Assembly: GCA_964016885.1 (NCBI GenBank)
Contig: OZ024760.1
Span: forward strand, 22,196,001 to 22,260,000
DNA length: 64,000 nt
Direction of reading: 5' to 3'
Source: Eledone cirrhosa
Lineage: Eukaryota
The position numbers were made by a program, and so were the translations under genes. Position 1 is the stretch's first letter. Every line of letters starts with the position of its first letter. Shown in pieces: positions 5,260-59,017 of this stretch. The notes below the pieces were generated by a model. That model did no database searches, was not told where the DNA came from, and saw only the letters and a program-made list of their open reading frames with translations.

Positions 5260-7732
5260 ACACAGCGCACAACAACATGGCTACACAGCGCACAACAATA
5301 TGGCTACACAGCGCCCAACAACATGGCTACGCAGCGCCCAACAACATGGCTACACAGCGCACAACAATATGGCTACACAGCGCACAACAATATGGCTACA
5401 CAGCGCCCAACAATATGGCTACACAGCGCCCAACAACATGGCTACACAGCGCCCAACAACATGGCTACGCAGCGCACAACAATATGGCTACACAGCGCCC
5501 AACAACATGGCTACGCAGCGCACAACAATATGGCTACACAGCGCACAACAATATGGCTACACAGCGCACAACAACATGGCTACACAGCGCACAACAACAT
5601 GGCTACACAACGCCCAACAACATGGCTACACAGCGCACAACAATATGGCTACACAGCGCCCAACAATATGGCTACACAGCGCCCAACAACATGGCTACAC
5701 AGCGTACAACAACATGGCTACACAGCGGCCAACAACATGGCTACACAGCGCACAACAACATGGCTACACAGCGCACAACAATATGGCTACACAGCGCACA
5801 ACAGTATGGCTACACAGCGCACAACAATATGGCTACACAGCGCACAACAACATGGCTACACAGCGGCCAACAACATGGCTACACAGCGCACAACAACATG
5901 GCTACACAGCGCACAACAACATGGCTACACAGCGCCCAACAATATGGCTACACAGCGCACAACAACATGGCTACACAGCGCCCAACAATATGGCTACACA
6001 GCGCACAACAATATGGCTACACAGCGCACAACAACATGGCTACACACCGCACAACAATATGGCTACACACCGCACAACAACATGGCTACACAGCGCACAA
6101 CAATATGGCTACACAGCGCCCAACAATATGGCTACACAGCGCACAACAATATGGCTACACAGCGCACAACAACATGGCTACACAGCGGCCAACAACATGG
6201 CTACACACCGCACAACAATATGGCTACACAGCGCACAACAACATGGCTACACACCGCACAACAATATGGCTACACACCGCACAACAACATGGCTACACAG
6301 CGCACAACAATATGGCTACACAGCGCCCAACAATCTGGCTACACAGCGCACAGCAACATGGCTACACAGCGCACAACAACATGGCTACACAGCGCCCAAC
6401 AATATGGCTACACAGCGCACAACAATATGGCTACACAGCGCACAACAACATGGCTACACAGCGGCCAACAACATGGCTACACAGCGCACAACAACATGGC
6501 TACACAGCGCCCAACAACATGGCTACACAGCGCACAACAACATGGCTACACAGCGCCCAACAATATGGCTACACAGCGCACAACAACATGGCTACACAGC
6601 GCCCAACAACATGGCTACACAGCGCACAACAATATGGCTACACAGCGCACAACAACATGGCTACACAGCGCCCAACAATATGGCTACACAGCGCACAACA
6701 ACATGGCTACACAGCGCCCAACAACATGGCTACACAGCGCACAACAACATGGCTACACAGCGCCCAACAATATGGCTACACAGCGCACAACAACATGGCT
6801 ACACAGCGCCCAACAACATGGCTACACACCGCACAACAACATGGCTACACAGCGCACAGCAACATGGCTACACAGCGCACAACAACATGGCTACACAGCG
6901 CCCAACAATATGGCTACACAGCGCACAACAATATGGCTACACAGCGCACAACAACATGGCTACACAGCGCCCAACAATATGGCTACACAGCGCACAACAA
7001 CATGGCTACACAGCGCCCAACAACATGGCTACACAGCGCACAACAACATGGCTACACAGCGCCCAACAACATGGCTACACAGCGCACAACAATATGGCTA
7101 CACAGCGCCCAACAACATGGCTACACAGCGCACAACAATATGGCTACACAGCGCACAACAACATGGCTACACAGCGCACAACAATATGGCTACACAGCGC
7201 ACAACAACATGGCTACACAGCGCACAACAACATGGCTACACAGCGCACAACAACATGGCTACACAGCGCACAACAACATGGCTACACAGCGCACAACAAC
7301 ATGGCTACACAGCGCACAACAACATGGCTACACAGCGCCCAACAACATGGCTACACAGCGCACAACAACATGGCTACACAGCGCCCAACAACATGGCTAC
7401 ACAGCGCACAACAATATGGCTACACAGCGGCCAACAACATGGCTACACAGCGCACAACAATATGGCTACACAGCGCACAACAATATGGCTACACAGCGCA
7501 CAACAACATGGCTACACAGCGCACAACAATATGGCTACACAGCGGCCAACAACATGGCTACACAGCGCACAACAATATGGCTACACAGCGGCCAACAACA
7601 TGGCTACACAGCGCACAACAATATGGCTACACAGCGCACAACAACATGGCTACACAGCGCACAACAACATGGCTACACAGCGCACAACAATATGGCTACA
7701 CAGCGCACAACAACATGGCTACACAGCGCACA
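5260..7732. repeat. 23-bp tandem satellite (ACACAGCGCACAACAACATGGCT), about 107 copies
   Basis: Direct periodicity; all three + frames are open because the unit has no stop codon. Confidence 0.97.
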
Positions 7733-11164: not shown

Positions 11165-12193
11165 AGAGGGCGGCGGATTTGCAGTAATCGGGAGAGCGTC
11201 GGACACCATACTTCGTGGCATAGAGTTACGGCCCTTTATATACAGAGTTCGAATTCCGCCGATGTTAACTTTGCCTTTCATCCTTACGGGGGGTCGATAA
11301 ATAAAGTAGCAATAACGCATTGGGGTCGATTTAATCGACTTTAACCTCCCCTAAAATTGCTGGCCTTGTGCCCAAAGCAGAAAGGATTATTATTGTGGAT
11401 TGGCAGTATCGGTAGAGGGTCGGACGCCATGCTTTGACGCATAGAGTTACGGCCCTTGCTTTTCTGAGTTCAAATCCCGCCGCGGTTAACTTTGCCTCTC
11501 ATCATTACGGGGGGTCGATAAAATACAGTACCAGTAATGCACTGGGGTTATTGCTGACCTTGTGCCAAAAGTAGAAACAATTAATTGGCATGGCGGTGGA
11601 TTGGCAGTATTGGTAGAGGGTTGGACGCCATGTTTTGCAGCATGGGTGTTATGGCCCTTTATGTTCTGAGTTCAAATCCCACCGAGGTTAACTTTGCCTT
11701 TCATCCTTACGGGCGGTCGATAAAATAAAGTACCAGTAATACACTGGAGTTATTGCTGGCCTTGTGCCAAAAGTAGAAACAATTAATTGGCATGGCGGTG
11801 GATTGGCAGTATTGGTAGAGGGTTGGACGCCATGTTTTGCAGCATGGGTGTTATGGCCCTTTATGTTCTGAGTTCAAATCCCACCGAGGTTAACTTTGCC
11901 TTTCATCCTTACGGGCGGTCGATAAAATAAAGTACCAGTAATACACTGGAGTTATTGCTGGCCTTGTGCCAAAAGTAGAAACAATTAATTGGCATGGCGG
12001 TGGATTGGCAGTATTGGTAGAGGGTTGGACGCCATGTTTTGCAGCATGGGTGTTATGGCCCTTTATGTTCTAAATTCAAATCCCACCGAGGTTAACTTTG
12101 CCTTTCATCCTTACGGGCGGTCGATAAAATAAAGTACCAGTAATACACTGGGTTATGGCTGGCCTTCTGCCAAAAGTAGAAACAATTATTATT
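11165..12193 (+). mobile_element. Five head-to-tail SINE family A copies; the last three are near-identical 202-bp units
   Basis: Units start at 11587, 11789 and 11991; A/B boxes and the Meta-like core are in each. Confidence 0.9.
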
Positions 12194-14564: not shown

Positions 14565-14642
14565 GCTTCTACAGGACTAGAACTGTTTCATTCGTGAGAA
14601 ATCAACAGGAAGCGCTTCCGGATGATTTCTTACGAATGAAAC
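14565..14642 (-). ncRNA. Palindromic pair of hammerhead copies (minus copy complete with A6U; plus copy truncated)
   Basis: Minus: gcttc-CTGTTGA-tttctcacgaat-GAAA-cagttctagtcctg-TA-gaagc. Plus: gcttc-CGGATGA-tttcttacgaat-GAAA-c. Symmetry axis at 14613/14614. Confidence 0.7.
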
Positions 14643-14750: not shown

Positions 14751-14791
<41 letters not shown>

Positions 14792-14795
<4 letters not shown>

Positions 14796-14961
14796 AACGA
14801 GTAGGACCCCGACGGCTGAGCTCAAGCAGAATTAGCCGTCGAAACGGCTTGAGCTCAGCCGTCGGAGTCCTACTCGTTCCTATTACCCACTCTACTACCC
14901 TAAGTATTGAGTACTTTGGTGCGTTATGGTCCACCTGGTTCCTTACCACATTTCCTCCGTT
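14792..14961 (+). mobile_element. Fold-back element, family F1
   Basis: Short inverted left arm; GAAA-cggcttgagctcagccg-TC; (TA)n flanks. Confidence 0.75.
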
Positions 14962-14990
14962 ATATATATATATATATATATATACATATT

Positions 14991-15238
14991 TTCATTCTGT
15001 GTTCAAATCCCGCCGAGGTTAACTTTGCCTTTCATCCTTACGGGGTCGATAAAATAAAGTACCAGTAATACACTGGGTATTTGCTGGCCTTGTGCCAAAA
15101 GTAGATACCTTTATTATAATAACCGAGTTATAATAACCCGTCAAGGTTAACTTTGCCTTTCATCCATACGGGGTCGATAAAATAAGTACCAGTAATGCAC
15201 TGGAAAATTGCTGGCCTTGTGCCAAAAGTAGAAACAAA
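14991..15238 (+). mobile_element. Two partial SINE family A copies
   Basis: Meta-like core occurs twice (~15020 and ~15150). Confidence 0.85.
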
Positions 15239-15488
15239 TATATATACAAACATACGTATTATATATACATACATACATATATATATGTATATATGTGAGT
15301 GTGTGCATTTGTGACTGTTTGTGTTTTGGGTGGGTGTATATAAATGTGTGAGAGTATGTGTGAGTGTGTAAGAGAAAGTGTATATACGTGTGTGCGAGTA
15401 TGTGTGTGCTTGTGTTTGTGTGAGGGAGAGAGTATGTAAGTATGTGAATGTTTGTTCCCGTATGTGAGAGTGTGTGTGTTCGTGTGAA

Positions 15489-23154: not shown

Positions 23155-23560
23155 CACAGTTTTATTAAACATGTTATATTAAAGACACTACTGAGTTCAA
23201 CTTTAATCTTTTTTTAATAAAGATTTTTCCTGTTTTCTCGTTTATGTTTCGCCTGGTACAATACCGCCAGGGCCATTGTGTGACAACGAACTTTTCAATA
23301 CATTTCAAATACAACGCTGACGCTTTATCAGTGGTAACACTATTTCTACTACACATCCTTACGGCCATAACACCGACAAAGAACCAGTTCTAGGCTAATC
23401 ACAAAAGTAAGGGAAACGCAAGGGCTCTAGTGTCACGGCACAATGGAGAAGAGGAAGGAGAAGGTTGATTGGGCTCTGGGTCTAAGGCATGGCAGGGGTA
23501 AGACGGCAAAAAACATTCCTGTGGACAATGGCCCATCGACACCCGCTGCAAAAGCCACCT

Positions 23561-25225
23561 CACCTCGCGGGGCTCTTTCCTCCGATAAGCGGCGCGGAGT
23601 GTGCGTTGATGTCCTCTCTCTCCCTCTTTCACTCACTGTCTACACCCCACCTCGCGGGGCTCCTTCCTCGGATAAGCGGCGTCGAGTGTGCGTTGATGTC
23701 CTCCCTCTCCCTCTTTCACTCACTGTCTACACCCCACCTCGCGGGGCTCCTTCCTCGGATAAGCGGTGCGGAGTGTGCGTTGATGTCCTCTCTCTTTCTC
23801 TTTCACTCACTGTCTACAATCCACCTCGCAGGGCTCCTTCCTCGGATGAGCGGCGTCGAGTGTGCGTTGATGTCCTCCCTCTTTCTCTTTCACTCACTGT
23901 CTACACCCCACCTCGCAGGGCTCCTTCCTCGGATAAGCGGCGTCGAGTGTGCGTTGATGTCCTCTCTCTTTCTCTTTCACTCACTGTCTGTCTACACCCC
24001 ACCTCGCAGGGCTCCTTCCTCGGATAAGCGGCGTCGAGTGTGCGTTGATGTCCTCTCTCTTTCTCTTTCACTCACTGTCTGTCTACACCCCACCTCGCAG
24101 GGCTCCTTCCTCGGATAAGCGGCGCGGAGTGTGCGTTGATGTCCTCTCTCTTTCTCTTTCACTCACTGTCTGTCTACATCCCACCTCGCAGGGCTCCTTC
24201 TTCGGATAAGCGGCGTCGAGTGTGCGTTGATGTCCTCCCTCTTTCTCTTTCACTCACTGTCTACACCCCACCTCGCAGCGCTCCTTCCTCGGATAAGCGG
24301 CGTCGAGTGTGCGTTGATGTCCTCCCTCTTTCTCTTTCACTCACTGTCTACACCCCACCTCGCAGCGCTCCTTCCTCGGATAAGCGGCGCGGAGTGTGCG
24401 TTGATGTCCTCTCTCTTTCTCTTTCACTCACTGTCTGTCTACACTCCACCTCGCAGGGCTCCTTCTTCGGATAAGCGGCGTCGAGTGTGCGTTGATGTCC
24501 TCTCTCTCCCTCTTTCACTCACTGTCTACACCCCACCTCGCGGGGCTCCTTCCTCGGATAAGCGGCGCGGAGTGTGCGTTGATGTCCTCTCACTTTCTCT
24601 TTCACTGTCTACACCCCACCTCGCAGGGCTCCTTCCTCGGATAAGCGGCGTCGAGTGTGCGTTGATGTCCTCTCACTTTCTCTTTCACTGTCTACACCCC
24701 ACCTCGCGGGGCTCCTTCCTCGGATAAGCGGCGTCGAGTGTGCGTTGATGTCCTCTCTCTTTCTCTTTCACTCACTGTCTACACCCCACCTCGCAGGGCT
24801 CCTTCCTCGGATAAGCGGCGTCGAGTGTGCGTTGATGTCCTCTCTCTCCCTCTTTCACTCACTGTCTACACTCCACCTCGCGGGGCTCCTTCCTCGGATA
24901 AGCGGCGTCGAGTGTGCGTTGATGTCCTCTCTCTTTCTCTTTCACTCACTGTCTGTCTACACTCCACCTCGCAGGGCTCCTTCCTCGGATAAGCGGCGTC
25001 GAGTGTGCGTTGATGTCCTCCCTCTTTCTCTTTCACTCACTGTCTACACCCCACCTCGCAGGGCTCCTTCCTCGGATAAGCGGCGTCGAGTGTGCGTTGA
25101 TGTCCTCTCTCTTTCTCTTTCACTCACTGTCTGTCTACACTCCACCTCGCAGCGCTCCTTCCTCGGATAAGCGGCGTCGAGTGTGCGTTGATGTCCTCTC
25201 TCTTTCTCTTTCACTCACTGTCTAC
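23561..25225. repeat. CpG-rich 83/87/91-bp minisatellite, about 19 copies
   Basis: Unit cacctcgcagggctccttcctcggataagcggcgtcgagtgtgcgttgatgtcctctctctttctctttcactcactgtctacaccc; length variants differ by 4-nt slips. Confidence 0.95.
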
Positions 25226-28780: not shown

Positions 28781-29310
28781 TGGGAATACGGAAGATGATG
28801 TGGTCGAGAGGTAAAGCAAAGCCTGGGCGGCGTGCCACAGCTTGAGATCGGTGTGGAAGATCGGTGTGTAAAGACCTGAAGATCCTTCTCTTCGTTGATG
28901 TAGTGGAGTCTGTGCTGCTGTACGGGTCTGAGACTTGGACACTGACCAAGAAACTTACTCAGATGGTGGATGAGAATGCTGAGGATGGCTCTGAACATTA
29001 ATCAGTATATATTGAGAATGAAGAACTCAGAGCTGTATGGGAGCCTCCCAAAAGTCAGCTCAAAAGTGACACAGAGGAGACTGAGGTTAGCTGGACATGC
29101 TTACCGGCATCCAGAGTTGACACTGCACTCAGTGCTCCTGTGGGAGCCCCTGCATGGACACACTGGAAGAGGAAGACCGAGGTTGACATATGTTGATGCC
29201 CTAAGAACAGACACTGGTCTGTTGAAGACGCATGACATGGCAGCGATAATGAGGGACAGAGACCGCTGGAGAGAACTTGTCCATGGATCTCGGGAATTTT
29301 ACCCGCCCGT
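28778..29310 (+). mobile_element. RTE/RTE-X LINE 3' fragment (RT C-terminus), disrupted
   Basis: [34 protein letters not shown] and DRDRWR motifs. Confidence 0.9.
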
Positions 29311-29401
29311 TTATTTGATATTACTGATAAAAAAAAAAAAAACTGAAATTCAATGAAATAATTATCCCTCTTTTACTCCACACCTGACGCGTGGCTAAAT
29401 A

Positions 29402-29844: not shown

Positions 29845-30042
29845 TATATACATATATATATCTTCATATCTTTATATATAAAAATATTCATATCCTCTCT
29901 CTCTCTCTATATATATATATACGCATATATATATATATAAATGATTGCGTATGTTTATATATATATACACGCATATATATATATATAAATATATAAATGA
30001 GAGTATGTTTATATATATATATACATATATATATACATATAT

Positions 30043-30435
30043 ATAGTATAACTGAACAAAAAAGAAAAAACGAGCACAGACATATAGATATATGTGTTCA
30101 AATCGTAATGGACCAGAAACGCTAAGGTGAAAAAAACACTAATAGGGTTTGTAATAGGGTTTGCTAGACTCAATTTAAGAATAAATCAAGAAAAATAAAT
30201 ACAAACCAGTATTGTGTAACTATCCATGAGTCTAGCAAACCCTATTGTCTGTAGTTAGTATTTTTTTCACCTTAGTGTTTCTGGTCCATTACGATTTGAA
30301 CACATCCATGTATATGACTGTGTTCGTTTTTCTTTTTCGTTTAGTTATACTATACGGCTCGGAAAAACCTTTTTCCTAGAGGTAATTTTACTGTAATGGG
30401 ACTATTTTGAGTTTCTAACTCAATACATGCCTTTA
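30043..30435 (+). mobile_element. Fold-back element (~125-bp arms) with pLTR-type TTGAGTT..AACTCAA tail
   Basis: Arms 30043-30171 and 30228-30353; tail motif shared with ~14730 and ~28541; (TA)n flanks. Confidence 0.6.
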
Positions 30436-30465
30436 ATATATATATATATATATAATATATACATA

Positions 30466-30502
<37 letters not shown>

Positions 30503-30729
30503 GAGAGTGTATGTTTGTATATATATATATCTATATCCCTCTCTCTCTATATATATATATACACATACGCATATATATATAAATGAGAGTGTATGTTTGT
30601 ATATATATATATATCTATATATATATATATACACATACGCATATATATATAAATGAGAGTGTATGTTTGTATATCTCTCTCTCTATATATATACACATAC
30701 GCATATATATATAAATTAGAGTGTATGTT

Positions 30730-30775
<46 letters not shown>

Positions 30776-31268
30776 TGTATATACGTGTGCGAAATGTCAG
30801 TTTAAGACAGACTATTGCTGTTTAATAAGGCAGAATGTGTTTTTAAAAGTCTATTAATAGCGACATTAGCAGATCTAATGAGAACCACATGTGTTGTTTT
30901 AGAGAGGAGATGAATGCTTATATAATGGCAGTATACCCACGTGCACACCTCTATACATGGCTTCATATACACACACACTCTAATACACACACACATATAC
31001 ATACACACAGACACACATATATATACGCACAAACATATACATACCCGCACACATACACGCACATATATATATATATGATTGAAATCAATATACATCAATA
31101 TATAGATATTATCAGTAGCAATAGAAAGACCAATGGAATCATTGGTAGCCTGGTTCGATTGGACAGGTTCCACCCCAATTGGCAAGCGAATGAAGTCTGA
31201 GAACTAATCGGTAGTTTCCACTCTCCCTCTCTAACTCTGTATGTGTGCATATATATCTATCTATCTAT

Positions 31269-31521
31269 CTAAGGCGGGTAAAATTCCCGAGATCCATGGA
31301 CGAGTTCTCTCCAGCGGTCTCTGTCCCTCATTATCGCTGCCATATCCTGCATCTCCAACAGACCAGTGTCTGTCCTTAGGACATCAACATATGTTAACCT
31401 TGGTCTTCCGCTTCTAGTGTGTCCATGTAGGGGCTCCCAAAGGAGCACTGAGTGCAATGTCAACTCTGGATGTCGGTGAGCATGTCCAGCCAACCTCAGT
31501 CTCCTCTGTGTCAGCTCAAAA

Positions 31522-31522
<1 letters not shown>
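31269..31522 (-). mobile_element. RTE/RTE-X LINE 3' end, second copy
   Basis: TQRRLRLAGH..GRPRLTYVD..DRDRWRELVHGSREFYPP*, near-identical to 29070-29308. Confidence 0.9.
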
Positions 31523-31562
<40 letters not shown>

Positions 31563-31780
31563 TTTTGGGGAAGCACAGCCTAAGTCTTTGGATAAACTGG
31601 CAGCAAATGCCTGAAGATCAACTATGTCTTCTGGTACACCAATGGCAATCACTTCATGGTTTACAGATTCAGTGGCGTTCTCATTGCCTCTAGATTCAGC
31701 AAGAGGTAGGCAGAGATTTTTTAACAAGGCACTCCAGTAAGATCCCTCATTGTGAGGTTCTACAGGAATGCTTGATATAT

Positions 31781-31997
31781 AACGAAGGAAATGTGGTAAG
31801 GAACCAGGTGGACCATAACGCACCAAAGTACTCAATACTTAGGGTAGTAGAGTGGGTAATAGGAACAAGTAAGACCCCGACGGCTGAGCTCAAGCCGTTT
31901 CGACGGCTAATTCTGGACTAAATAAAAAAAATTTTTTAGTCCAGAATTAGCCGTCGAAACGGCTTGAGCTCAGCCGTCGGGGTCCTACTCGTTCCTA
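31781..31997 (-). mobile_element. Fold-back element, family F1
   Basis: Long inverted arms around an A/T spacer at ~31925. Confidence 0.78.
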
Positions 31998-32021
31998 TAT
32001 ATATATATATATATATATATA

Positions 32022-32388
32022 TACCATCTGTAGACACCTGAAATATAGGCATTGTTAGCTTAAGAGAAACTTAAAATTAAAGAGTGGTACTCCAATCTGA
32101 ACTTGTTTATAGTATTCTTTCTGTCTTTGTCACTCTAAATATAAATTATAGCTTTTAAAGAATTCCCTTTTCTTTAAACCCATCAACCATTGACCCCCAC
32201 CCCTCCAAATACCCCACCCTCTCCTACCACCGGAAAAGATATATATACTACCATATTTACTTGGACAGTCAGCTTCCTGATGATTTCTCTCGAATGAAAC
32301 AGTTCTAGTCATGTAGAAGATTTTCTATATTAAACATTTATACTCTGCTATGTATTGAGTACATTAACCCCGACTGAACCCAGAATAA

Positions 32389-32390
<2 letters not shown>
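32022..32390 (+). mobile_element. 5'-truncated Penelope-like element end (CRH-stop, 3'UTR, hammerhead, tail)
   Basis: TICRHLKYRHC* at 32023 resembles the C-terminal CxH of the 38483 ORF (short match); hammerhead at 32273; (TA)n flanks. Confidence 0.6.
32273..32319 (+). ncRNA. Type I hammerhead ribozyme (CTAG loop family)
   Basis: cttc-CTGATGA-t ttc tctc gaa t-GAAA-ca gttctagtca tg-TA-gaag. Confidence 0.75.
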
Positions 32391-32437
<47 letters not shown>

Positions 32438-32489
32438 ATATATATGTGTGTGTGTGTATGTGTATAATTGTGTATGTGTTGATTCCGCT

Positions 32490-32534
<45 letters not shown>

Positions 32535-32562
32535 ACGCGTGTTGATTCCGTTTATAAATAGA

Positions 32563-32611
<49 letters not shown>

Positions 32612-32943
32612 CCTCTACTTTAAATGAACTTCTATCCAGGAGAGACTGGTTGGGCCAACCTTAACTGGTATCAGTATTAACAATTATGTGTTCTCTGTGG
32701 ATTCTATACCAATAGCATTAAAAATATACTCGTTAATAGCATTAAAAGTATACCAATAGCATTGACAGTATATACGTACATACACGCACCAAACATATGT
32801 ATGAACTGTTCCACTTTTCTCTCCTCTTTCTATCTTCTTTTCTCTGTCTTTTTTCTCTCTTTATCTTTCTCTGTTTTCCTTTCTATTTTTTCTTTCTCTA
32901 TCTCTCTTTCTTTTTTCTCTCTCTATCTTTATTATTAATATTA

Positions 32944-33132
32944 TGGTGGATTGGCAGTATCGGTAGAGGGTCGGACGCCATGCTTTCCAGCATAGTTACG
33001 TCCCTTTACGATCTGAGTTCAAATCCCGCCGAGGTTGACTTTGCCTTTCATCCTTACGGGGTCGATAAAATAAAGTACCAGTAATGCACTGGGCAATTGC
33101 TGGCCTTGTGCCTAAAGTAGAAACAATTATTA
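32944..33132 (+). mobile_element. SINE family A, full length
   Basis: A box tggcagtatcgg, B box, Meta-like core, att tail. Confidence 0.9.
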
Positions 33133-33180
33133 ATGATGCTGTAATTTGAATTTGTAAAATTACCGGCCATATAACAATTA

Positions 33181-33284
33181 TCTCCGATGATCTGGTTAAG
33201 CTAACAACGTATTTGAAATTGAGTGTCACTGCTTCAAGTGTTCAGCAATCTTTAGACAACTTAATCAGTGAAACAATTGTCAGA
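33181..33284 (+). ncRNA. Hammerhead with CCGAUGA core and 79-nt stem II
   Basis: tct-CCGATGA-t ctggttaag ... cttaatcag t-GAAA-caattg-TC-aga. Confidence 0.65.
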
Positions 33285-33407
33285 CTGTAAATAAATCCCC
33301 TTTTTGTATTGTTGACCATGTTATTCTTCACTTTTTCAATTTTATTACTCCAAGATAAACTTACATAGGAATACAAGTGAAATCATGAACTCGTCACCTA
33401 CGTAAAC

Positions 33408-34575
33408 ATATATATATATATATATTTAATATATATATATATATATTTAATATATATATATTTAATATATATATATATATATTTAATATATATATATTTA
33501 ATATATATATATTTAATATATATATATATTTAATATATATATATATTTAATATATATATATATATTAAATATATATATATATTTAATATATATATATATA
33601 TTAAATATATATATATATTTAATATATATATATATATTTAATATATATATATATTTAATATATATATATATATTTAATATATATATATATTAAATATATA
33701 TATATATTTAATATATATATATATATTTAATATATATATATATATTAAATATATATATATATTTAATATATATATATATATTAAATATATATATATATTT
33801 AATATATATATATATATTTAATATATATTAAATATATATATATATTTAATATATATATATATATTTAATATATATTAAATATATATATATATTTAATATA
33901 TATATATATATTTAATATATATATATATTAAATATATATATATATATAATATATATATATATATTTAATATATATATATATATTAAATATATATATATAT
34001 ATATTAAATATATATATATATATTTAATATATATATATATATTAAATATATATATATATTAAATATATATATATATAATATATATATTTAATATATATAT
34101 ATATATTAAATATATATATATATTTAATATATATATATATATTTAATATATATATATATTAAATATATATATATATATAATATATATATATATATTTAAT
34201 ATATATATATATATTAAATATATATATATATTTAATATATATATATATATTTAATATATATATATATTAAATATATATATATATATAATATATATATATA
34301 TATTTAATATATATATATAATATATATATATATATTTAATATATATATATATATTAAATATATATATATATATTTAATATATATATATATTTAATATATA
34401 TATATATATATTTAATATATATATACATTTAATATATATATATTTTATATATATATATATATTTAATATATATATATATATATATAATATATATATATAT
34501 TTAATATATATATATATTTAATATATATATATATATATTTACATATATATATATATTTAATATATATATATATAA
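33408..34575. repeat. ~1.17-kb almost pure A/T array: (TA)n with TTTAA/TTAAA units in both orientations
   Basis: Essentially no G or C across the span. Confidence 0.95.
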
Positions 34576-35022
34576 TAAATATTTACACACATATATATAT
34601 ATATATAATATCTATATAAGTAATATATATATATATATATTGACATATATACACATACACACACACACATACATACATATAAATATATGTATAGAGGGAG
34701 AGACAGATAAATAGATGAAAGAAGAGAGGGGGGGGGGGAGAGAGAGGGGGATAATATAAAGAAAGAGAAAGAGATAAAGCGAGAGTGGGAGTGAGAGGAG
34801 AGCGGTGTATATATGATGAGTAGTGATGTAGAACACATATCATTGAATACTTCGTGGAGCCGTTGCCTTGCCAACAACATCCGTATTATTTGACAGCACT
34901 AATTAACTGGCATCATGGCCGACCAGATAATATTTTTGATTGATCTTTGAATACCTGCATCGTCCCTTGTCTGTCTAATTGTGTCTGAGTCTCAATATAG
35001 AAGCTATCCTGGCTTATTTACT

Positions 35023-35057
<35 letters not shown>

Positions 35058-35059
<2 letters not shown>

Positions 35060-35234
35060 AAAGATTTATTTAAAATTGTTGGGTTACAACGAGTAAATAT
35101 TTTATAACTGATATAAAGCACTCAACAGTTTTTGGAGTAGGTTTACGATATTAAACAAATGGAAACTATATTTATAAAACCATATTTATTTTAAATATGG
35201 TTTTATAAATATAGTTTCTATTTGTTTAATATCG

Positions 35235-35240
<6 letters not shown>
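35058..35240 (-). mobile_element. Fold-back pLTR tail, same family as 47510-47860, without the ribozyme
   Basis: Inverted arms 35144-35236; shares atggaaactatatttataaaaccatattta and gatataaagcactcaaca with the 47.5-kb element. Confidence 0.7.
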
Positions 35241-35269
<29 letters not shown>

Positions 35270-35271
<2 letters not shown>

Positions 35272-35446
35272 GGAAAATGTTTGAACTCGACGGCAGAGCT
35301 CAAACCGTTTCTGTCCAGAAATAGCCGTCGAAACGGCTTGAGCTCTGCCATCGGGATCAAACATTTTCCTATAACCCACTCTACTACTCTAAGTATTGAG
35401 TACTCTGGTGCGTTATGGTCCATCTGGTTCCTTACCACACCTCCTT

Positions 35447-35450
<4 letters not shown>
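35270..35450 (+). mobile_element. Fold-back element, family F1
   Basis: Same structure as 2460; (TA)n flanks. Confidence 0.75.
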
Positions 35451-35498
<48 letters not shown>

Positions 35499-35541
35499 AG
35501 AAAAAATTTACGAAATGGAAATGCGGGTATATAGAATTTAT

Positions 35542-35656
35542 TAGGTAACAATTGTTTCTATAGTGTATGAGTTACCTATACCTCGCTCCTTGAATAATAC
35601 ACAAATATTATCAAAAACCGAAAGTACACTGTAAGCCAACACACCATGTCATCAGA

Positions 35657-35660
<4 letters not shown>
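35542..35660 (-). ncRNA. Type I hammerhead with canonical core and 90-nt stem II
   Basis: Minus: taggt-CTGATGA-c atggtgtg ... tacactat a-GAAA-caattg-TT-accta; the insert folds as one long imperfect hairpin; (TA)n flanks. Confidence 0.75.
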
Positions 35661-35747
<87 letters not shown>

Positions 35748-36696
35748 ATACATATTGGGCGGAGGATTAGTGCTATTGTCTTTATACAGCAACCGCCACC
35801 ACCACCACCACGACCACCACCAAACAACAACAACAACATAACCACCTCACCAACTATTTCTATTACTTGTATTACTACTACTACTATTATTACTACTACT
35901 ACAACAGTGTTATTTTCTTTGAAACATAAAACCAACCGACCACTCAACTGCAAAAAATATAAATAAAAAAAACAAAACAAGAAATATAGAAGTCTGTAAA
36001 GCAAAACAAGAGAAATGTTCGCCTACCTCTTAAGAAAGCTAATTCGTTTCCACTTCCGGTAAAATTGTTCTCTCAATTATAAACACTGTCTTGTCATTTC
36101 GTTCGGTTTAGAAAGTTCGGAAGAATTGTCTTCTATTGTCTTGGAGTAAGTGGCTTCCTGGGAATTGGCACACATCACACAGGAATCACAAATTAATTTT
36201 GGCCTGAATAAAAAAAAAAAATACAAATATAAAAGAAGAATGAGAAAAATGTAAAAAGAAACAAAATAAAATTGAATTAAAATATATATAAAAAAAATGA
36301 AAAAAAAAAAAAAAATGTAAAATAGAAATAAAATGAATAAAAAAAAATACAAAACAAAAAAACAAAACAAAAATCAAAACCCAACAAAACAAAAAAGAAA
36401 CAAAAAAAAACAAAAAATAACAAAACAAAACAAAACAAAACAAAAAAGAAAAACAAAAGTAAAATGAAATAAAATGTAAAATACCATATATTATAGTAAA
36501 ATGAAAATAAAAATAACAATGGCCTCATTAGGTAATGTCAGAAAGGGGTGAAGTTAAGATGTCACGTGCTGTGATAGTGTGGGGTGGGATGGGATGGGAT
36601 GGGGTGGGTTGAATGTGGCAGCCAATAATATGGAACTATTTTTTATTGACAGCGGAGGAATTTGTAGGAAACTTTATTAAAAAATATCATTAATAT

Positions 36697-37012
36697 AATT
36701 GTCTACTTTTGTCACAAGTCCAGCAATTACTCCAGTGTATTACTGGTACTATTTTATCGACCCCGTAAGGATAAAAGGCAAAGCTAACCTCGGCGGGATT
36801 TGAACTCAAAACACTAACACAATAAGGGTTTCTACTTTTTGCACAGGGCCAGCAATTACACCAGTGCATTACTGGTACTTTATTTTAGCGACCCCATAAA
36901 GATGAAAGGCAAAATTAACATTGGTGAGATTTGAACTCGGAACGTAAAGGACCATAACTCTATGCTGCAAAACATGGTATCTGATGCTCTACCGATTCTG
37001 CCAATCCACCAT
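36697..37012 (-). mobile_element. Two SINE family A copies
   Basis: Reverse-complement Meta-like core at ~36750 and ~36880. Confidence 0.85.
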
Positions 37013-37260
37013 TTAAATAATATTTGATATTCGACAATATACATTAAATGTTTTTATTCGTATTTTTATTCCTAATTTCCAAATTTCTTAGATTATTTAT
37101 TGTTTTGGTGTTTTAAATATGTTGAGTGTGGCCATGCTGTAGCAGCCTTCTCAAGTATTTTGTGTTTGATTTATTTTTGAGTAGGTTAGATAGGTATATA
37201 TATATATATGTATGACTAATTTTTGAAGGACAACAGAGCGACGTGCTATTAAGGCATGCA

Positions 37261-37294
<34 letters not shown>

Positions 37295-37297
<3 letters not shown>

Positions 37298-37433
37298 AAG
37301 ATGTGGTAAGGAACCAGATGGACCATAACGCACCAGAGTACTCAATACTTAGGGTAGTAGAGTAGGTAATAGGAAAATATTTAACCCCGACGGCAGAGCT
37401 CAAGTCGTTTCGACGGCTATTTCTGGACTGGAG

Positions 37434-37474
<41 letters not shown>

Positions 37475-37655
37475 TATATGTATGACAAGAGTCAGGATTC
37501 CAACGGCTGAGCCACGGCCGTTTCGACAGCCGCCGAAACGGCTGGAGCTCAGCCGTTGGGGTTCTGACTCTTTTCCTGTTACCCACTCTACTACCCTTAG
37601 TATTGGGTACTCTGGTCCTTATGTTCCAACTGGTATCTTACCACACCCGCTTTGA
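37295..37655. mobile_element. Two family F1 copies (37295-37437 minus, no fold-back; 37484-37655 plus, diverged) separated by (TA)n
   Basis: Shared ccactctactaccct..gtattg.gtactctgg tail and GAAA-cggc..gccg motif. Confidence 0.7.
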
Positions 37656-37927
37656 TATATATATATATGTGTATATGTATTCTACGCCCTTTGTGTTTGT
37701 GTAGCCTCTGCGCACCCTCTGCACCATACTATCCACGCCACCCCATCTATGGTTCAGCTAACCACCCGACCCCCGATGACCGCAGCTAGTAAACAAGGAC
37801 CAACACCCCACCCTCCCGCACCAAAATTAGACTTATCGTCCCCTACTTTTGCTCTTTACTCTCTTTACTCTTTGTTCTTGGGTGTTTGGTTGGTAGAGTC
37901 CATAACACCAATCAAACCCCTTTTATA

Positions 37928-37974
37928 GCTCTGATGAACCCTACGGTTACACGTAAGGAAGAAACATTGTTAGC
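37928..37974 (+). ncRNA. Type I hammerhead ribozyme
   Basis: gct-CTGATGA-a cc c tacg gttaca cgta a gg aa-GAAA-cattg-TT-agc; preceded by a C-rich UTR-like tract and followed by (TA)n. Confidence 0.65.
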
Positions 37975-38015
37975 CAATAAAAATCTTTTGATGTTGTAGA
38001 CGCTCTTGTGTTCTT

Positions 38016-38046
<31 letters not shown>

Positions 38047-38440
38047 CGAGGGCAATCCCAAAAGTAATGTCTCCTTTCGATATTGCAACTTTTCCGTTAA
38101 AATCCTGTGGATGGTGCTTCGGGAAACTTCAGGAACCAAAATGCAGAGAGCATCCAGAGTGATCAGCCGATCTTTACGCATGTTTTCCTAGGAAGGAGAC
38201 CATACTTTTGGGATTGCCCTCGTATATAATAACTGCGCGAAATTAGCACTTGGCGGTAGCGTTCAACGGGAGCTCCTTTCTCAACGGCTGCCAAGCCAAG
38301 ATTGAGCATCCCAGCCAAGCGCGGGCATGCTTGTTTGGGAGTGAAAGAAGTACCGATCACAACAATGTTGCCAACAGCCGTACGAACAGTTTCTTTGCGT
38401 CTTCATCGCTTTGAAGACCTTACTTTTGGGATTACCCTCG
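38047..38440 (-). mobile_element. Deleted mariner element(s) with three TIR copies
   Basis: TIR cgagggcaatcccaaaagta at 38047; inverted copies end at 38222 and 38440; TA flanks; HTH fragment RKDRLITLDAL..SRSTIHRILTEKLQYRK. Confidence 0.8.
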
Positions 38441-38482
38441 TATATATATATATATTTATATATACAATATATATATATATAA

Positions 38483-38800
38483 AACTTCAAGACCCGGCTC
38501 TACCAACACCGACATACTTTCCGAAACCCGGTCCAGCGACATGCCACTACACTTTCGGGCCACATCTGGGACCTCCAAGATAATAATATAACCTACAATC
38601 TCACTTGGAGCTTACTGTCCAGAGCTAACTCTTACACGGGAGGACCCCGTCCGTGTAACTTATGCTCGGAGGAAACATTACAAATGCTGTTTTCGAAGGA
38701 CCAACTCCTAAGCAAGGAAGACGAACTGGTAACCGCATGCAAACACAGATTGCGTAGGACTTACGTCGCCCTCAAACCCCATAACGACCCGGGTGGGTAG
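38483..38800 (+). pseudogene. C-terminal part of a Penelope-like GIY-YIG endonuclease (5'-truncated; absent from the ORF track)
   Basis: Open frame NFKTRLYQHRHTF..TTLSGHIWDLQD..TWSLLSRANSY..PCNLCSEE..LLSKEDELVTACKH..*. It fits the FKxRxxxH / LSxxIW / CxLCxxE / CxH pattern of PLE endonucleases (Naiad-like, from memory). Confidence 0.8.
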
Positions 38801-39156
38801 ACATGGGCTGATACCCCCCTACTTGCCGAATTAAGTTAGGGGAAACCCCAGCTTACATAGGTAGATGTATCTCTTTTCTTTTCTTTTCCTCATTGTCTTC
38901 TTCTCCCTGTCTCAAGCTATCACTTCCATCCAGCCCCTATTTTCTTCCTCGTCTGCTTTTCCCCTTTCGCCTAGCCCGATGCAGCCCGTCGGGCCTCTGT
39001 AGCATCAGTTCCCCCACCCCTGTAATTTTAAGATAGTAAAACGTATTCGGCCAATTCTAACTACTTATAGCAGACGTGTTAAACCCCTTTTATTTTTGTA
39101 TCTGTATGATTCTTTAGTCGAATAGGAGCTTTATTGTGTGTACAAACATTAATAAT

Positions 39157-39201
39157 GCTCCGAAGACTCCAAGCTTATGTTTGGAAGAAACAATTGTCAG
39201 C
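39157..39201 (+). ncRNA. Hammerhead with CCGAAGA core
   Basis: gct-CCGAAGA-c tccaagc ttat gtttgga a-GAAA-caattg-TC-agc. Confidence 0.7.
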
Positions 39202-39381
39202 GATTAAATGTTTTATACATAACTTTGATTCTTGTGTATTCAATATTACTGCTCTGTAAAACAACTGATGTTCTTACATTGAGCTATTTATCTTACTGGT
39301 AATAAGGTAGTAATAAATTACTGACCTTTCCTGTTTATAGTTGTCTATAGTATAGTATATACATAACTATCAATAGTATCT

Positions 39382-39412
<31 letters not shown>

Positions 39413-39496
39413 CTTACTTACACATACACATATACACATGCATACACACACACACACATATATATATTTATATATACATGTATGTATATACATTAT

Positions 39497-39687
39497 AGGA
39501 TTGGCAGTATCGGCAGAGGGTCAGACGCCATGCTTTGAAGCATAGAATTACCTCCCTGTATGATCCGATTCAAATCTCGCCGAGGTTAACTTTGCCTTTC
39601 ATCCTTACGGGGGTCGATAAAATAAAGTACCAGTAATGCACTGGGGATAATTGCTGGCCTTGTGCCCCAAAAGCAGAAACAATTATA
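39497..39687 (+). mobile_element. SINE family A
   Basis: A/B boxes and Meta-like core. Confidence 0.88.
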
Positions 39688-41545
39688 AGTTGAGGGAAGA
39701 AAATTATTTTCCAAACAACACCTTACATATAATGGTGCTGGTGGTGATGATGTTAGTGGTGGTAGAGGTGGTGGTAGAGGTGTTAGTGGTTGTGGTGTTG
39801 GTGGTAGTGGTGGTGGTAGTAGTGGTGATGGTTGTGGTGGTGGTGGTGTTGGCTTACGTTGGCTTACATACAGTTGTAAGTTGAGGAATATTTAGCTACT
39901 ACTTCTAGCAGTGACAGCTACCACACAGAGACCTCCTTCTTTGGCTCTGTGGTCCTTCTACATAATAAGACATCTCCTTTTGTAATTGGAATAAAGAAAA
40001 TACTAGCAACACAACACCTCTTATACATCAAGCCACCTGCGTCGGCCTCCAGCATGTCAGCCATTTGTTGCTATGGGCAACTGAAACAATAACAACTACA
40101 ACAACAAAATGGTTCCGGCAACTTGAAATACAACAACAACAACAACAACAACAACAATAACACCATCATCAACACTAGCAAGATCATCATCATCATCATT
40201 ATCATCATCATCATTATCATCACCATCATTGTCTTCGCCCTGATCATTATCATCACCATCATCATAACCATCATCATCATAACCATCATCATCCCCCACC
40301 ACCACCACAATCGTCATCACCATCGCCATAATCATCATCATCACCATCATCACCATCCCGATCATATTAATCCTCACAATCATCATCATCATCACCACTA
40401 TCATCATTATCGTCTTCATCACCATCATCACAGTCACCATCAGCACCACCATTCTCACCACCACTACCACCAGCACCCCCACCAGCAGTACCATAAGCAC
40501 CACCATCACCACCACCACCACCACCACCAGCAGTACCATAAGCACCACCATCACCACCACCACCACCACCACCAGCAGTACCATAAGCACCACCATCACC
40601 ACCACCACCACCACCACCAGCAGTACCATAAGCACCACCATCACCACCACCACCACCACCACCAGCAGTACCATAAGCACCACCATCACCACCACCACCA
40701 CCAGCAGTACCATAAGCACCATCACCACCACCACCACCACCACCACCAGCATCACCACCACCACCACCACCACAACCACCATCACCACTACCACCACCAC
40801 CATCAGCAGTACCAGTACCAGCACCACCATCACCACTACCAGCACCACCACCATCAGCAGTACCAGTACCAGCACCACCACCACAACCATCACCAGCACC
40901 ACCACTAACACCACCACCTCTACCACCACCACCACCACAACCATCACCACTACTACCACCACCACTAACACTAACACCACCACCAGCAACACCACTAACA
41001 CCACCACCTCTACCACCACCACAACCATCACCACTACTACCACCACCACTAACACTAACACCACCACCAGCAGTACCACTACCAGCACCACCACCACCAC
41101 CACCACCACAACCATCACCACTACTACCACCACCACTAACACTAACACCACCACCAGCAGTACCACTACCAGCACCACCACCACCACCACCACCACAACC
41201 ATCACCACTACTACCACCACCACTAACACTAACACCACCACCAGCAACACCACTAACACCACCACCTCTACCACCACCACAATCATCACCACTACTACCA
41301 CCACCACTACCACCAACACCACCATCATCACCACCACCATCACCACCACTACCATCACCACTACCAGCACCACCACCACAACCACCACCACCATCACCAC
41401 CACAACCATCACCAGCACCACCACTAACACCACCACCACAACCATCACAACTACTACCACCACCACCACTACCATCAACACCACCACCAGCAACACCACT
41501 AACACCACCACCTCTACCACCACCACTAACACCACCACCACCACC

Positions 41546-47548: not shown

Positions 47549-47609
47549 TATTTTATTATATATATTTCAAGGGCAAACAAGGCAAATTATGGTGCGCTTT
47601 CATCAGATA
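47549..47609 (-). ncRNA. Hammerhead, inverted arm of fold-back (stem I only 3 bp)
   Basis: Minus: tat-CTGATGA-aagcgca..tgccctt-GAAA-tatata-TA-ata. Confidence 0.65.
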
Positions 47610-57355: not shown

Positions 57356-57590
57356 AATATATATATTCTTATATATAATGATTGCTTATTTTAAGATTCA
57401 CTTCTTTAAAAAATTTCAAATGTCAACACTTTCAGTTAGCGTCCGTTATATCATAACATTTATTACATCGCTTATATAAAGCGTAGAAATGCTACAAAGA
57501 TAGCTTATAAAATAGAGTGAAGACCCTTAAAAGACAAAAAAAGAGGTTGCTATTGGCCAGAATTGAACCCCGTATATATACATATATATA

Positions 57591-57963
<373 letters not shown>

Positions 57964-58946: not shown

Positions 58947-59017
58947 TATTTTATCTGACGAAAACGCAAATGTTATTGCATAATGATATTTGTTTTTGAA
59001 ATGCGCATAATAAAATA
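58947..59017 (+). ncRNA. Type I hammerhead ribozyme with 36-nt stem II, in a nested fold-back
   Basis: tattttat-CTGACGA-aaacgcaaatgttatt gcat aatgatatttgttttt-GAAA-tgcgca-TA-ataaaata; 8-bp stem I; inverted copy at ~58760-58856. Confidence 0.85.

Follow-up and report, generated by a model that had tools for sequence, protein, structure and literature searches.

A probable 5′-truncated Hydra-clade Penelope-like retrotransposon with a hammerhead motif behind its endonuclease remnant in Eledone cirrhosa

Anatomy of the element

The segment 38482–39389 of the 64-kb stretch of Eledone cirrhosa DNA analyzed here (hereinafter the window) is very probably a single 5′-truncated genomic copy of a Penelope-like retrotransposon (PLE) of the Hydra clade. 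It is a 908-bp unit sandwiched, with direct junctions on both sides, between two (TA)n tracts, and every Hydra-clade feature that survives the truncation is matched in it. Its parts, with their immediate surroundings, are:

38441–38481: left (TA)n tract, imperfect; the putative insertion target, which also adjoins the right inverted repeat of a neighboring mariner-like element
38483–38800, + strand: stop-free frame of 105 codons, the 3′ remnant of a single reverse transcriptase (RT)-endonuclease (EN) ORF
38486–38746, + strand: C-terminal half of a Hydra-type GIY-YIG endonuclease (from HMMER, profile, motif columns and the fold of a relative)
38801–39389, + strand: 3′ UTR of 589 nt
39125–39161, + strand: predicted competing hairpin, which takes in the 5′ strand of hammerhead stem I plus the two 5′-most bases of the core
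39145–39212, + strand: type I hammerhead motif (from descriptor scan and folding)
39390–39412: right (TA)n tract (beginning at 39389/39390)

The first-pass annotation had recognized here the GIY-YIG C-terminus of an RT-bearing PLE, followed by a hammerhead and set in (TA)n, and the sequences and predicted folds of the relatives agree with that reading. The reported (TA)n flanks are present on both sides, in a window where TA runs are common (369 runs, about 7 kb of the 64 kb). So is the uninterrupted frame of ~105 residues after the left tract, the start once given for it, 38481, being out of frame. No start codon precedes its conserved part, and the TAA just upstream (38480–38482) was created by the TA junction. 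The description of the UTR as pyrimidine-rich is borne out for 38851–39000, where 50-nt blocks contain 70–80% C+T, but not for the UTR as a whole, in which C+T amounts to 59% across all 589 nt. The designation of the unit as a pLTR has to be dropped: neither a direct or inverted repeat of it nor a tandem array was found in 37400–39700, and the window holds no second copy, bar a 14-nt match at 33270–33283.

A profile of 101 relatives detected neither an RT nor a further EN piece in the window. It matches solely at 38480–38758, corresponding to HMM positions 604–697 of 703; thus, the copy starts just after the YIG strand and the RT is absent. This copy comes without the RT, the GIY and YIG strands, the CxCX5C linker, a start codon and the pLTR repeat. 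A weak tblastn match at 15237–15302 (E = 0.007) was rejected, as it falls in a TA/CA repeat and a SINE end.

The 908-bp unit could instead represent a non-autonomous SINE- or retrozyme-like family that arose from a Hydra 3′ end and is copied by an autonomous partner. A bioRxiv report (10.64898/2026.07.22.740005) proposes that non-autonomous hammerhead elements derive from PLE ends, and several other hammerhead islands of the window are without a coding remnant. However, such a family is represented by one copy in 64 kb with no tandem, and its 5′ end lies mid-domain at a TA junction, as random 5′ truncation would predict, and PLE copies are as a rule shortened in this way (Craig et al. 2021, PMC8557442). 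Non-LTR retrozymes, which are non-coding tandem units with a type I hammerhead, also differ from this single, non-tandem unit with its coding remnant. We consider such an origin very unlikely and retain a truncated PLE copy as the preferred reading.

Beside the element lies an internally deleted mariner-like DNA transposon (38045–38442), the inverted repeats of which are 94% complementary (50 nt including the TA). A third copy of the repeat is found at 38193–38228, and a minus-strand frame runs across 37912–38187. We take the start of this frame to resemble a transposase helix-turn-helix; Pfam returned nothing relevant for the frame.

The endonuclease remnant and its relatives

The motifs originally noted in the peptide, FKTRLYQH, LSGHIW, CNLCSEE and CKH, are all present. 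Its endonuclease residues comprise R5, H9, the CxxC (38654–38665), E64 (38672) and the CxH (38738–38746), with a serine replacing a conserved asparagine at 38711–38713. A HMMER scan with the peptide recovered 2949 proteins at E ≤ 0.001, the best of them at 1.6e-26, a value that excludes a chance frame. The other form of this alternative is a host gene in which a captured Hydra endonuclease serves as an exon: the frame is indeed uninterrupted, and some annotated animal proteins (P0016, P0156) hold such segments. Against this stand its start at a TA junction, the missing GIY-YIG strands, the loss of the conserved asparagine, and the UTR and hammerhead of the element that come after it. We give an origin by chance or from a host exon hardly any credence.

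A PLE endonuclease is what the longer relatives point to. The closest relatives (45–54% identical to the peptide) are fragments without an RT. When longer proteins were sought by a word-indexed search, the peptide drew 26 candidates, none of which scored. P0155 (716 aa), a cluster mate of one of the matches, aligns C-terminally to the peptide with 39% identity (E = 1e-22), and a search with it found at least 2116 long relatives. In keeping with the earlier expectation that the peptide matches GIY-YIG/PLE proteins, it matches all 121 proteins of the long set (P0155 and 120 of its listed relatives), at a median of 9 residues from the C-terminus, and the YxDDG of the RT lies upstream of the match in 120 of them. 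The same 121 proteins show RW[KR] in 112, DKT in 116 and CxCX5C in 114 cases, counts that are partly selected for since this RT-bearing set was gathered by the P0155 search. Identity of the RT-bearing relatives to the peptide is about 33–46%. The consensus of the 101 relatives has no cysteine between the two GIY-YIG strands, the cysteine-bearing part being among what the truncation removed from the present copy, and at least 90% of them read DKT, not DKA, at the aligned RT column.

Pfam assigned no family to the peptide and returned nothing relevant for P0155, P0125, P0072, P0002, P0016 and P0001; among four more proteins, P0156 alone has a GIY-YIG match, at residues 504–529, outside the stretch matching the peptide. 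A sequence search of the PDB with the family profile gave no hits. The fold models are those of two relatives, P0155 and P0154, and not of the peptide itself. That of P0155, from AlphaFold (pLDDT 92.5), has TERT as its best Foldseek match (E = 3.8e-9, TM about 0.3). For the EN region of P0154, a cluster mate of P0155 (pLDDT 87.6), Foldseek found nothing at E ≤ 0.001, GIY-YIG chains appearing only at E 0.3–2.3, while VIA-align against 48,161 chains placed I-TevI first (Z 9.1, rmsd 2.3 Å over 90 residues), followed by T4 EndoII (7.6) and UvrC (6.0). Hence, given the TERT-like and I-TevI-like folds and the upstream YxDDG, these relatives are RT proteins with a C-terminal GIY-YIG domain.

Clade assignment

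Judged by its CxxC-E...N-CxH tail, the stop that follows and the hammerhead beyond it, the peptide is a Hydra-clade and not a Naiad endonuclease. PMC8557442 gives the CxxC-E and N-CxH pattern for the Hydra clade (section 11, Fig. S7), with the corresponding columns of Fig. S7 absent from Penelope/Poseidon, Nematis and Neptune, and describes Naiads as having an N-terminal EN and no canonical hammerhead (section 6). Thus, the Naiad-like label of the first-pass annotation is wrong: domain order, tail motifs and hammerhead fit the Hydra clade. CNLC..E64 and CKH are in place in the peptide, and the N column reads Ser as against N in 148 of 154 relatives, a count in which P0125 and P0072 are represented by five cluster mates as well (P0100, being repetitive and unrelated, was left out of it and of the tree below).

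What speaks for a Naiad is that (TA)n is favored by Naiads, too, whose hosts include cephalopods among other invertebrates, and that their GIY-YIG endonuclease shares with that of the Hydra clade the R, H, E and N residues, which PMC8557442 ties to EN catalysis. However, the Naiad domain order is the reverse, with the N-terminal EN leading via a KR-rich block and CxC to the RT, whereas here the frame stops 17 codons past the CxH and no RT follows. Naiads have a CCHH motif and no canonical hammerheads, whereas this element shows a hammerhead architecture with stems I–III. By eye, the octopus Naiad EN sequences have no CxxC before the E and no CxH after the N, and where DKA is expected of a Naiad RT the aligned column of the relatives reads DKT. 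A Naiad identity is therefore extremely improbable.

For the Hydra-clade assignment a named reference is at hand in P0321 from Apostichopus japonicus, which aligns to the peptide with 34/88 identities (39%, E = 1e-19) and, when compared by eye with the Fig. S7 rows for RT4-5 and the final EN part, differs from Hydra-1_Ajap in a single residue. An EN-tail tree of 89 columns (59 rows, 58 of them chosen from 387 proteins, with no outgroup clades and a bootstrap that had not settled) groups the peptide with P0001, P0002, P0003, P0005 and P0007 with support 95/97. These five sub-branch mates are fragments, none of which includes the RT; most of the sub-branch carries E-E-[T/A] as opposed to x-E-K in the clade.

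With Hydra-1_Ajap, Hydra-1/2_Amil and Penelope-1_NV, the element shares the C-terminal CxxC-E/N-CxH tail and stop, a 3′ UTR in which a type I hammerhead lies close to the 3′ end, and (TA)n on both sides, while differing in that it comprises the last 908 bp only, has Ser for Asn and bears a U4C change in the hammerhead core. Hydra-1_Obim of Octopus bimaculoides, which is complete (2507 bp), set in (TA)n and without a pLTR (PMC8557442), is alike in clade and layout; in its hammerhead, the core CUGAAGA is combined with a stem II of 7 bp and a stem III that is nearly palindromic. However, the EN tails are identical at 33/87 positions (38%; hand count against Fig. S7), and the UTR and hammerhead sequences are different. 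By these sequence comparisons the two are separate families, and the element may belong to a family outside the 2021 Hydra list. Three short motifs of the window are absent from the supplement text of PMC8557442, where line breaks could hide a match, and the literature searched on the Hydra clade and octopus PLE hammerheads gave no description of this family.

The hammerhead motif

The hammerhead motif lies on the sense strand, 360 nt past the stop, with its cleavage site 190 nt from the element end. Stem I (39145–39159 with 39199–39212) has 13 bp and two bulges; the core CCGAAGA (39160–39166) is one change (U4C) away from CUGANGA and is followed by an unpaired C at 39167; stem II (39168–39174/39179–39185) has 7 bp with a C-A apposition at its base; GAA (39187–39189) leads into the palindromic stem III (39190–39197); and the cleavage triplet is GUC, with the cut predicted after C 39198. 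The hammerhead placed earlier at 39157, which is the start of the proximal 3 bp of stem I, is present in its architecture, with the one departure in its core.

Taken alone, the hammerhead descriptor is weak evidence. With one core mismatch allowed, the scan picked out 8 motifs across the window, of which 4 have an exact core, and ten shuffled windows yielded 0–1 exact-core and 0–3 one-mismatch motifs each. Rfam gave no match at gathering score in the window and, across 30000–40000, no hammerhead family among the 150 weak rows listed out of 158. Accordingly, the motif derives its evidential weight from its placement behind the endonuclease stop and not from the descriptor.

According to Cervera and de la Pena (2014, PMC4209133), metazoan PLE hammerheads are considered to work as dimers, with weak cleavage in vitro. 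The motif of the element resembles those presented there in being of type I, with a 7-bp stem II, a palindromic stem III suited to a dimer and one more base separating position 9 from stem II, and differs from them in U4C, the lack of a G10.1-C11.1 pair, a longer, interrupted stem I and the predicted competing hairpin upstream. Co-folding of a pair is predicted to join the palindromes, at −34.4 kcal/mol versus −28.0 for two monomers. In the competing hairpin, 39125–39129 is predicted to pair with 39157–39161 at a probability near 1, and the hairpin would beat the hammerhead-ready monomer fold by about 6.7 kcal/mol. U4C and this hairpin would speak against an active monomer ribozyme. According to PMC3088659, U4C lowers activity in vitro yet supports viroid infectivity, and hence a variant ribozyme need not be dead. 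The two departures might even be family traits of a still-active, undescribed Hydra subfamily with a damped ribozyme, shut off in the completed monomer RNA, that cleaves only co-transcriptionally or as a dimer; we regard this as unlikely, and a single copy does not distinguish a family trait from decay.

Other CAATTG sites, hammerhead-like islands and repeats

The CAATTG-type ribozymes elsewhere in the window had also been tied to an EN-bearing PLE, a link that the sequence does not support beyond the element. Only the 39-kb one of three exact GAAACAATTGT sites in the window passed the hammerhead scan; those at 33270 and 35548–35558 have no recognizable CUGANGA core. There are 13 GAAACAATTGT-like sites as against 2.0 expected, 7 of which read GAAACAATTAT, and this excess was rejected as ribozyme evidence, the sites read in context (33120 and 39676) being the 3′ end of a SINE-like repeat. 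This abundant repeat of about 200 bp reads GAAACAATTAT at its 3′ end and thereby mimics the CAATTG hammerhead stem. It is found at:

39498–39690
32945–33130
11395–12188 (3.9 tandem copies of 202 bp)
14990–15230 (− strand)

A further island had been singled out upstream of the element:

32024–32391, + strand: second TA-flanked island, with ICRHLKYRHC-stop followed by a hammerhead-like motif at 32277

The CRH at 32029, earlier read as CRH-stop, is separated from the stop by six further codons, and the hammerhead of the island is of a different, non-CAATTG type. The island has no DNA similarity to 38482–39389 and is missed by the family HMM; a different Hydra family may have left it as a shorter 3′ remnant. 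The CRH is only a candidate coding remnant: it stands in a stretch of ten codons, and there are 11 C[RKPM]H triplets beside TA runs, most of them from repeats.

The motif at 32277 (+) belongs with those at 1365 (+) and 14608 (−) to a second hammerhead-like family, 86–94% alike, which has a 4-bp stem III, an 8-nt loop and a weak stem II and is unrelated to the 39-kb motif. An inverted partial copy lies at about 14613–14642 (+), and the resulting head-to-head pair at 14.6 kb resembles the inverted 5′ junctions of PLEs. Near-identical inverted pairs of hammerhead cores are seen in TA-flanked islands at 47606 (−)/47694 (+), 58857 (−)/58955 (+) and 19229 (−)/19233 (+), with a stem I of 8/8 in the motif at 58955. 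The TA-flanked island at 37680–38019, upstream of the element, shows CUGAUGA, an exact core, at 37931, with GAAAC following at 37961; it holds no coding remnant and failed the stem filter.

Another repeated element of the window ends in a long palindrome, always stands in TA runs and yields spurious Rfam miRNA-precursor scores. Its copies, 79–97% alike, are:

2482–2672
14791–14983
31792–31998
35269–35476
37268–37429
37484–37645
57590–57842

Two related frames, at 28946–29356 (+) and about 31269–31520 (−), resemble the 3′-terminal coding part of RTE-type LINEs; Pfam found no family in the former. Minisatellites occupy 5260–7732 (23 bp × 107.5) and 23556–25225 (87 bp × 19), both 93% matched.

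Age of the copy and proposed origin

The intact frame had been taken to suggest a young family, which does not follow from it. In simulations of random divergence, a 105-codon frame stays open in 53% of cases at 5% divergence and in 29% at 10% when indels are left out, and in 17% and 2%, respectively, when they are included. The open frame thus counts against great age only and is not proof of a young or active family. Moreover, the ribozyme core and three conserved residues depart, the latter by comparison with the 154 relatives: Met68 (Ile in 150, Met in none), Ser77 (Asn in 148, Ser in 3) and Glu79 (Arg in 124, Lys in 18, Glu in none). The three codons (38684–38686, 38711–38713 and 38717–38719) are each explicable by one sense-strand A-to-G change from the inferred ancestral codon. 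Were such a bias present in more copies, it could reflect an RNA intermediate that had undergone A-to-I editing; three sites do not suffice for that conclusion.

The anatomy of the copy and established PLE biology suggest the following origin. The endonuclease would have nicked a (TA)n microsatellite, and the RT, primed at the nick, would have started on the 3′ end of the element RNA and broken off reverse transcription some 900 nt later, shortly before reaching the YIG strand. In the model of the literature, the hammerhead of the 3′ UTR is thought to trim the element RNA from longer or tandem transcripts, probably acting as a dimer via the palindromic stem III. The copy itself is a passive relic from which no working enzyme can be produced.

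Significance

The combination of endonuclease, hammerhead and (TA)n is that of the published description of the Hydra clade, and the layout is an ordinary one. The element adds at most one family to a clade for which 27 families are listed (PMC8557442). Elements of this kind are missed by Pfam and Rfam, and the long relatives in the protein collection, at least 2116 in number, make the clade far larger than its description. The finding would matter more if the altered core and the competing hairpin were conserved in the family. Were they traits of a still-active Hydra subfamily, the damped ribozyme would constitute a switch between translation and processing of the element RNA.
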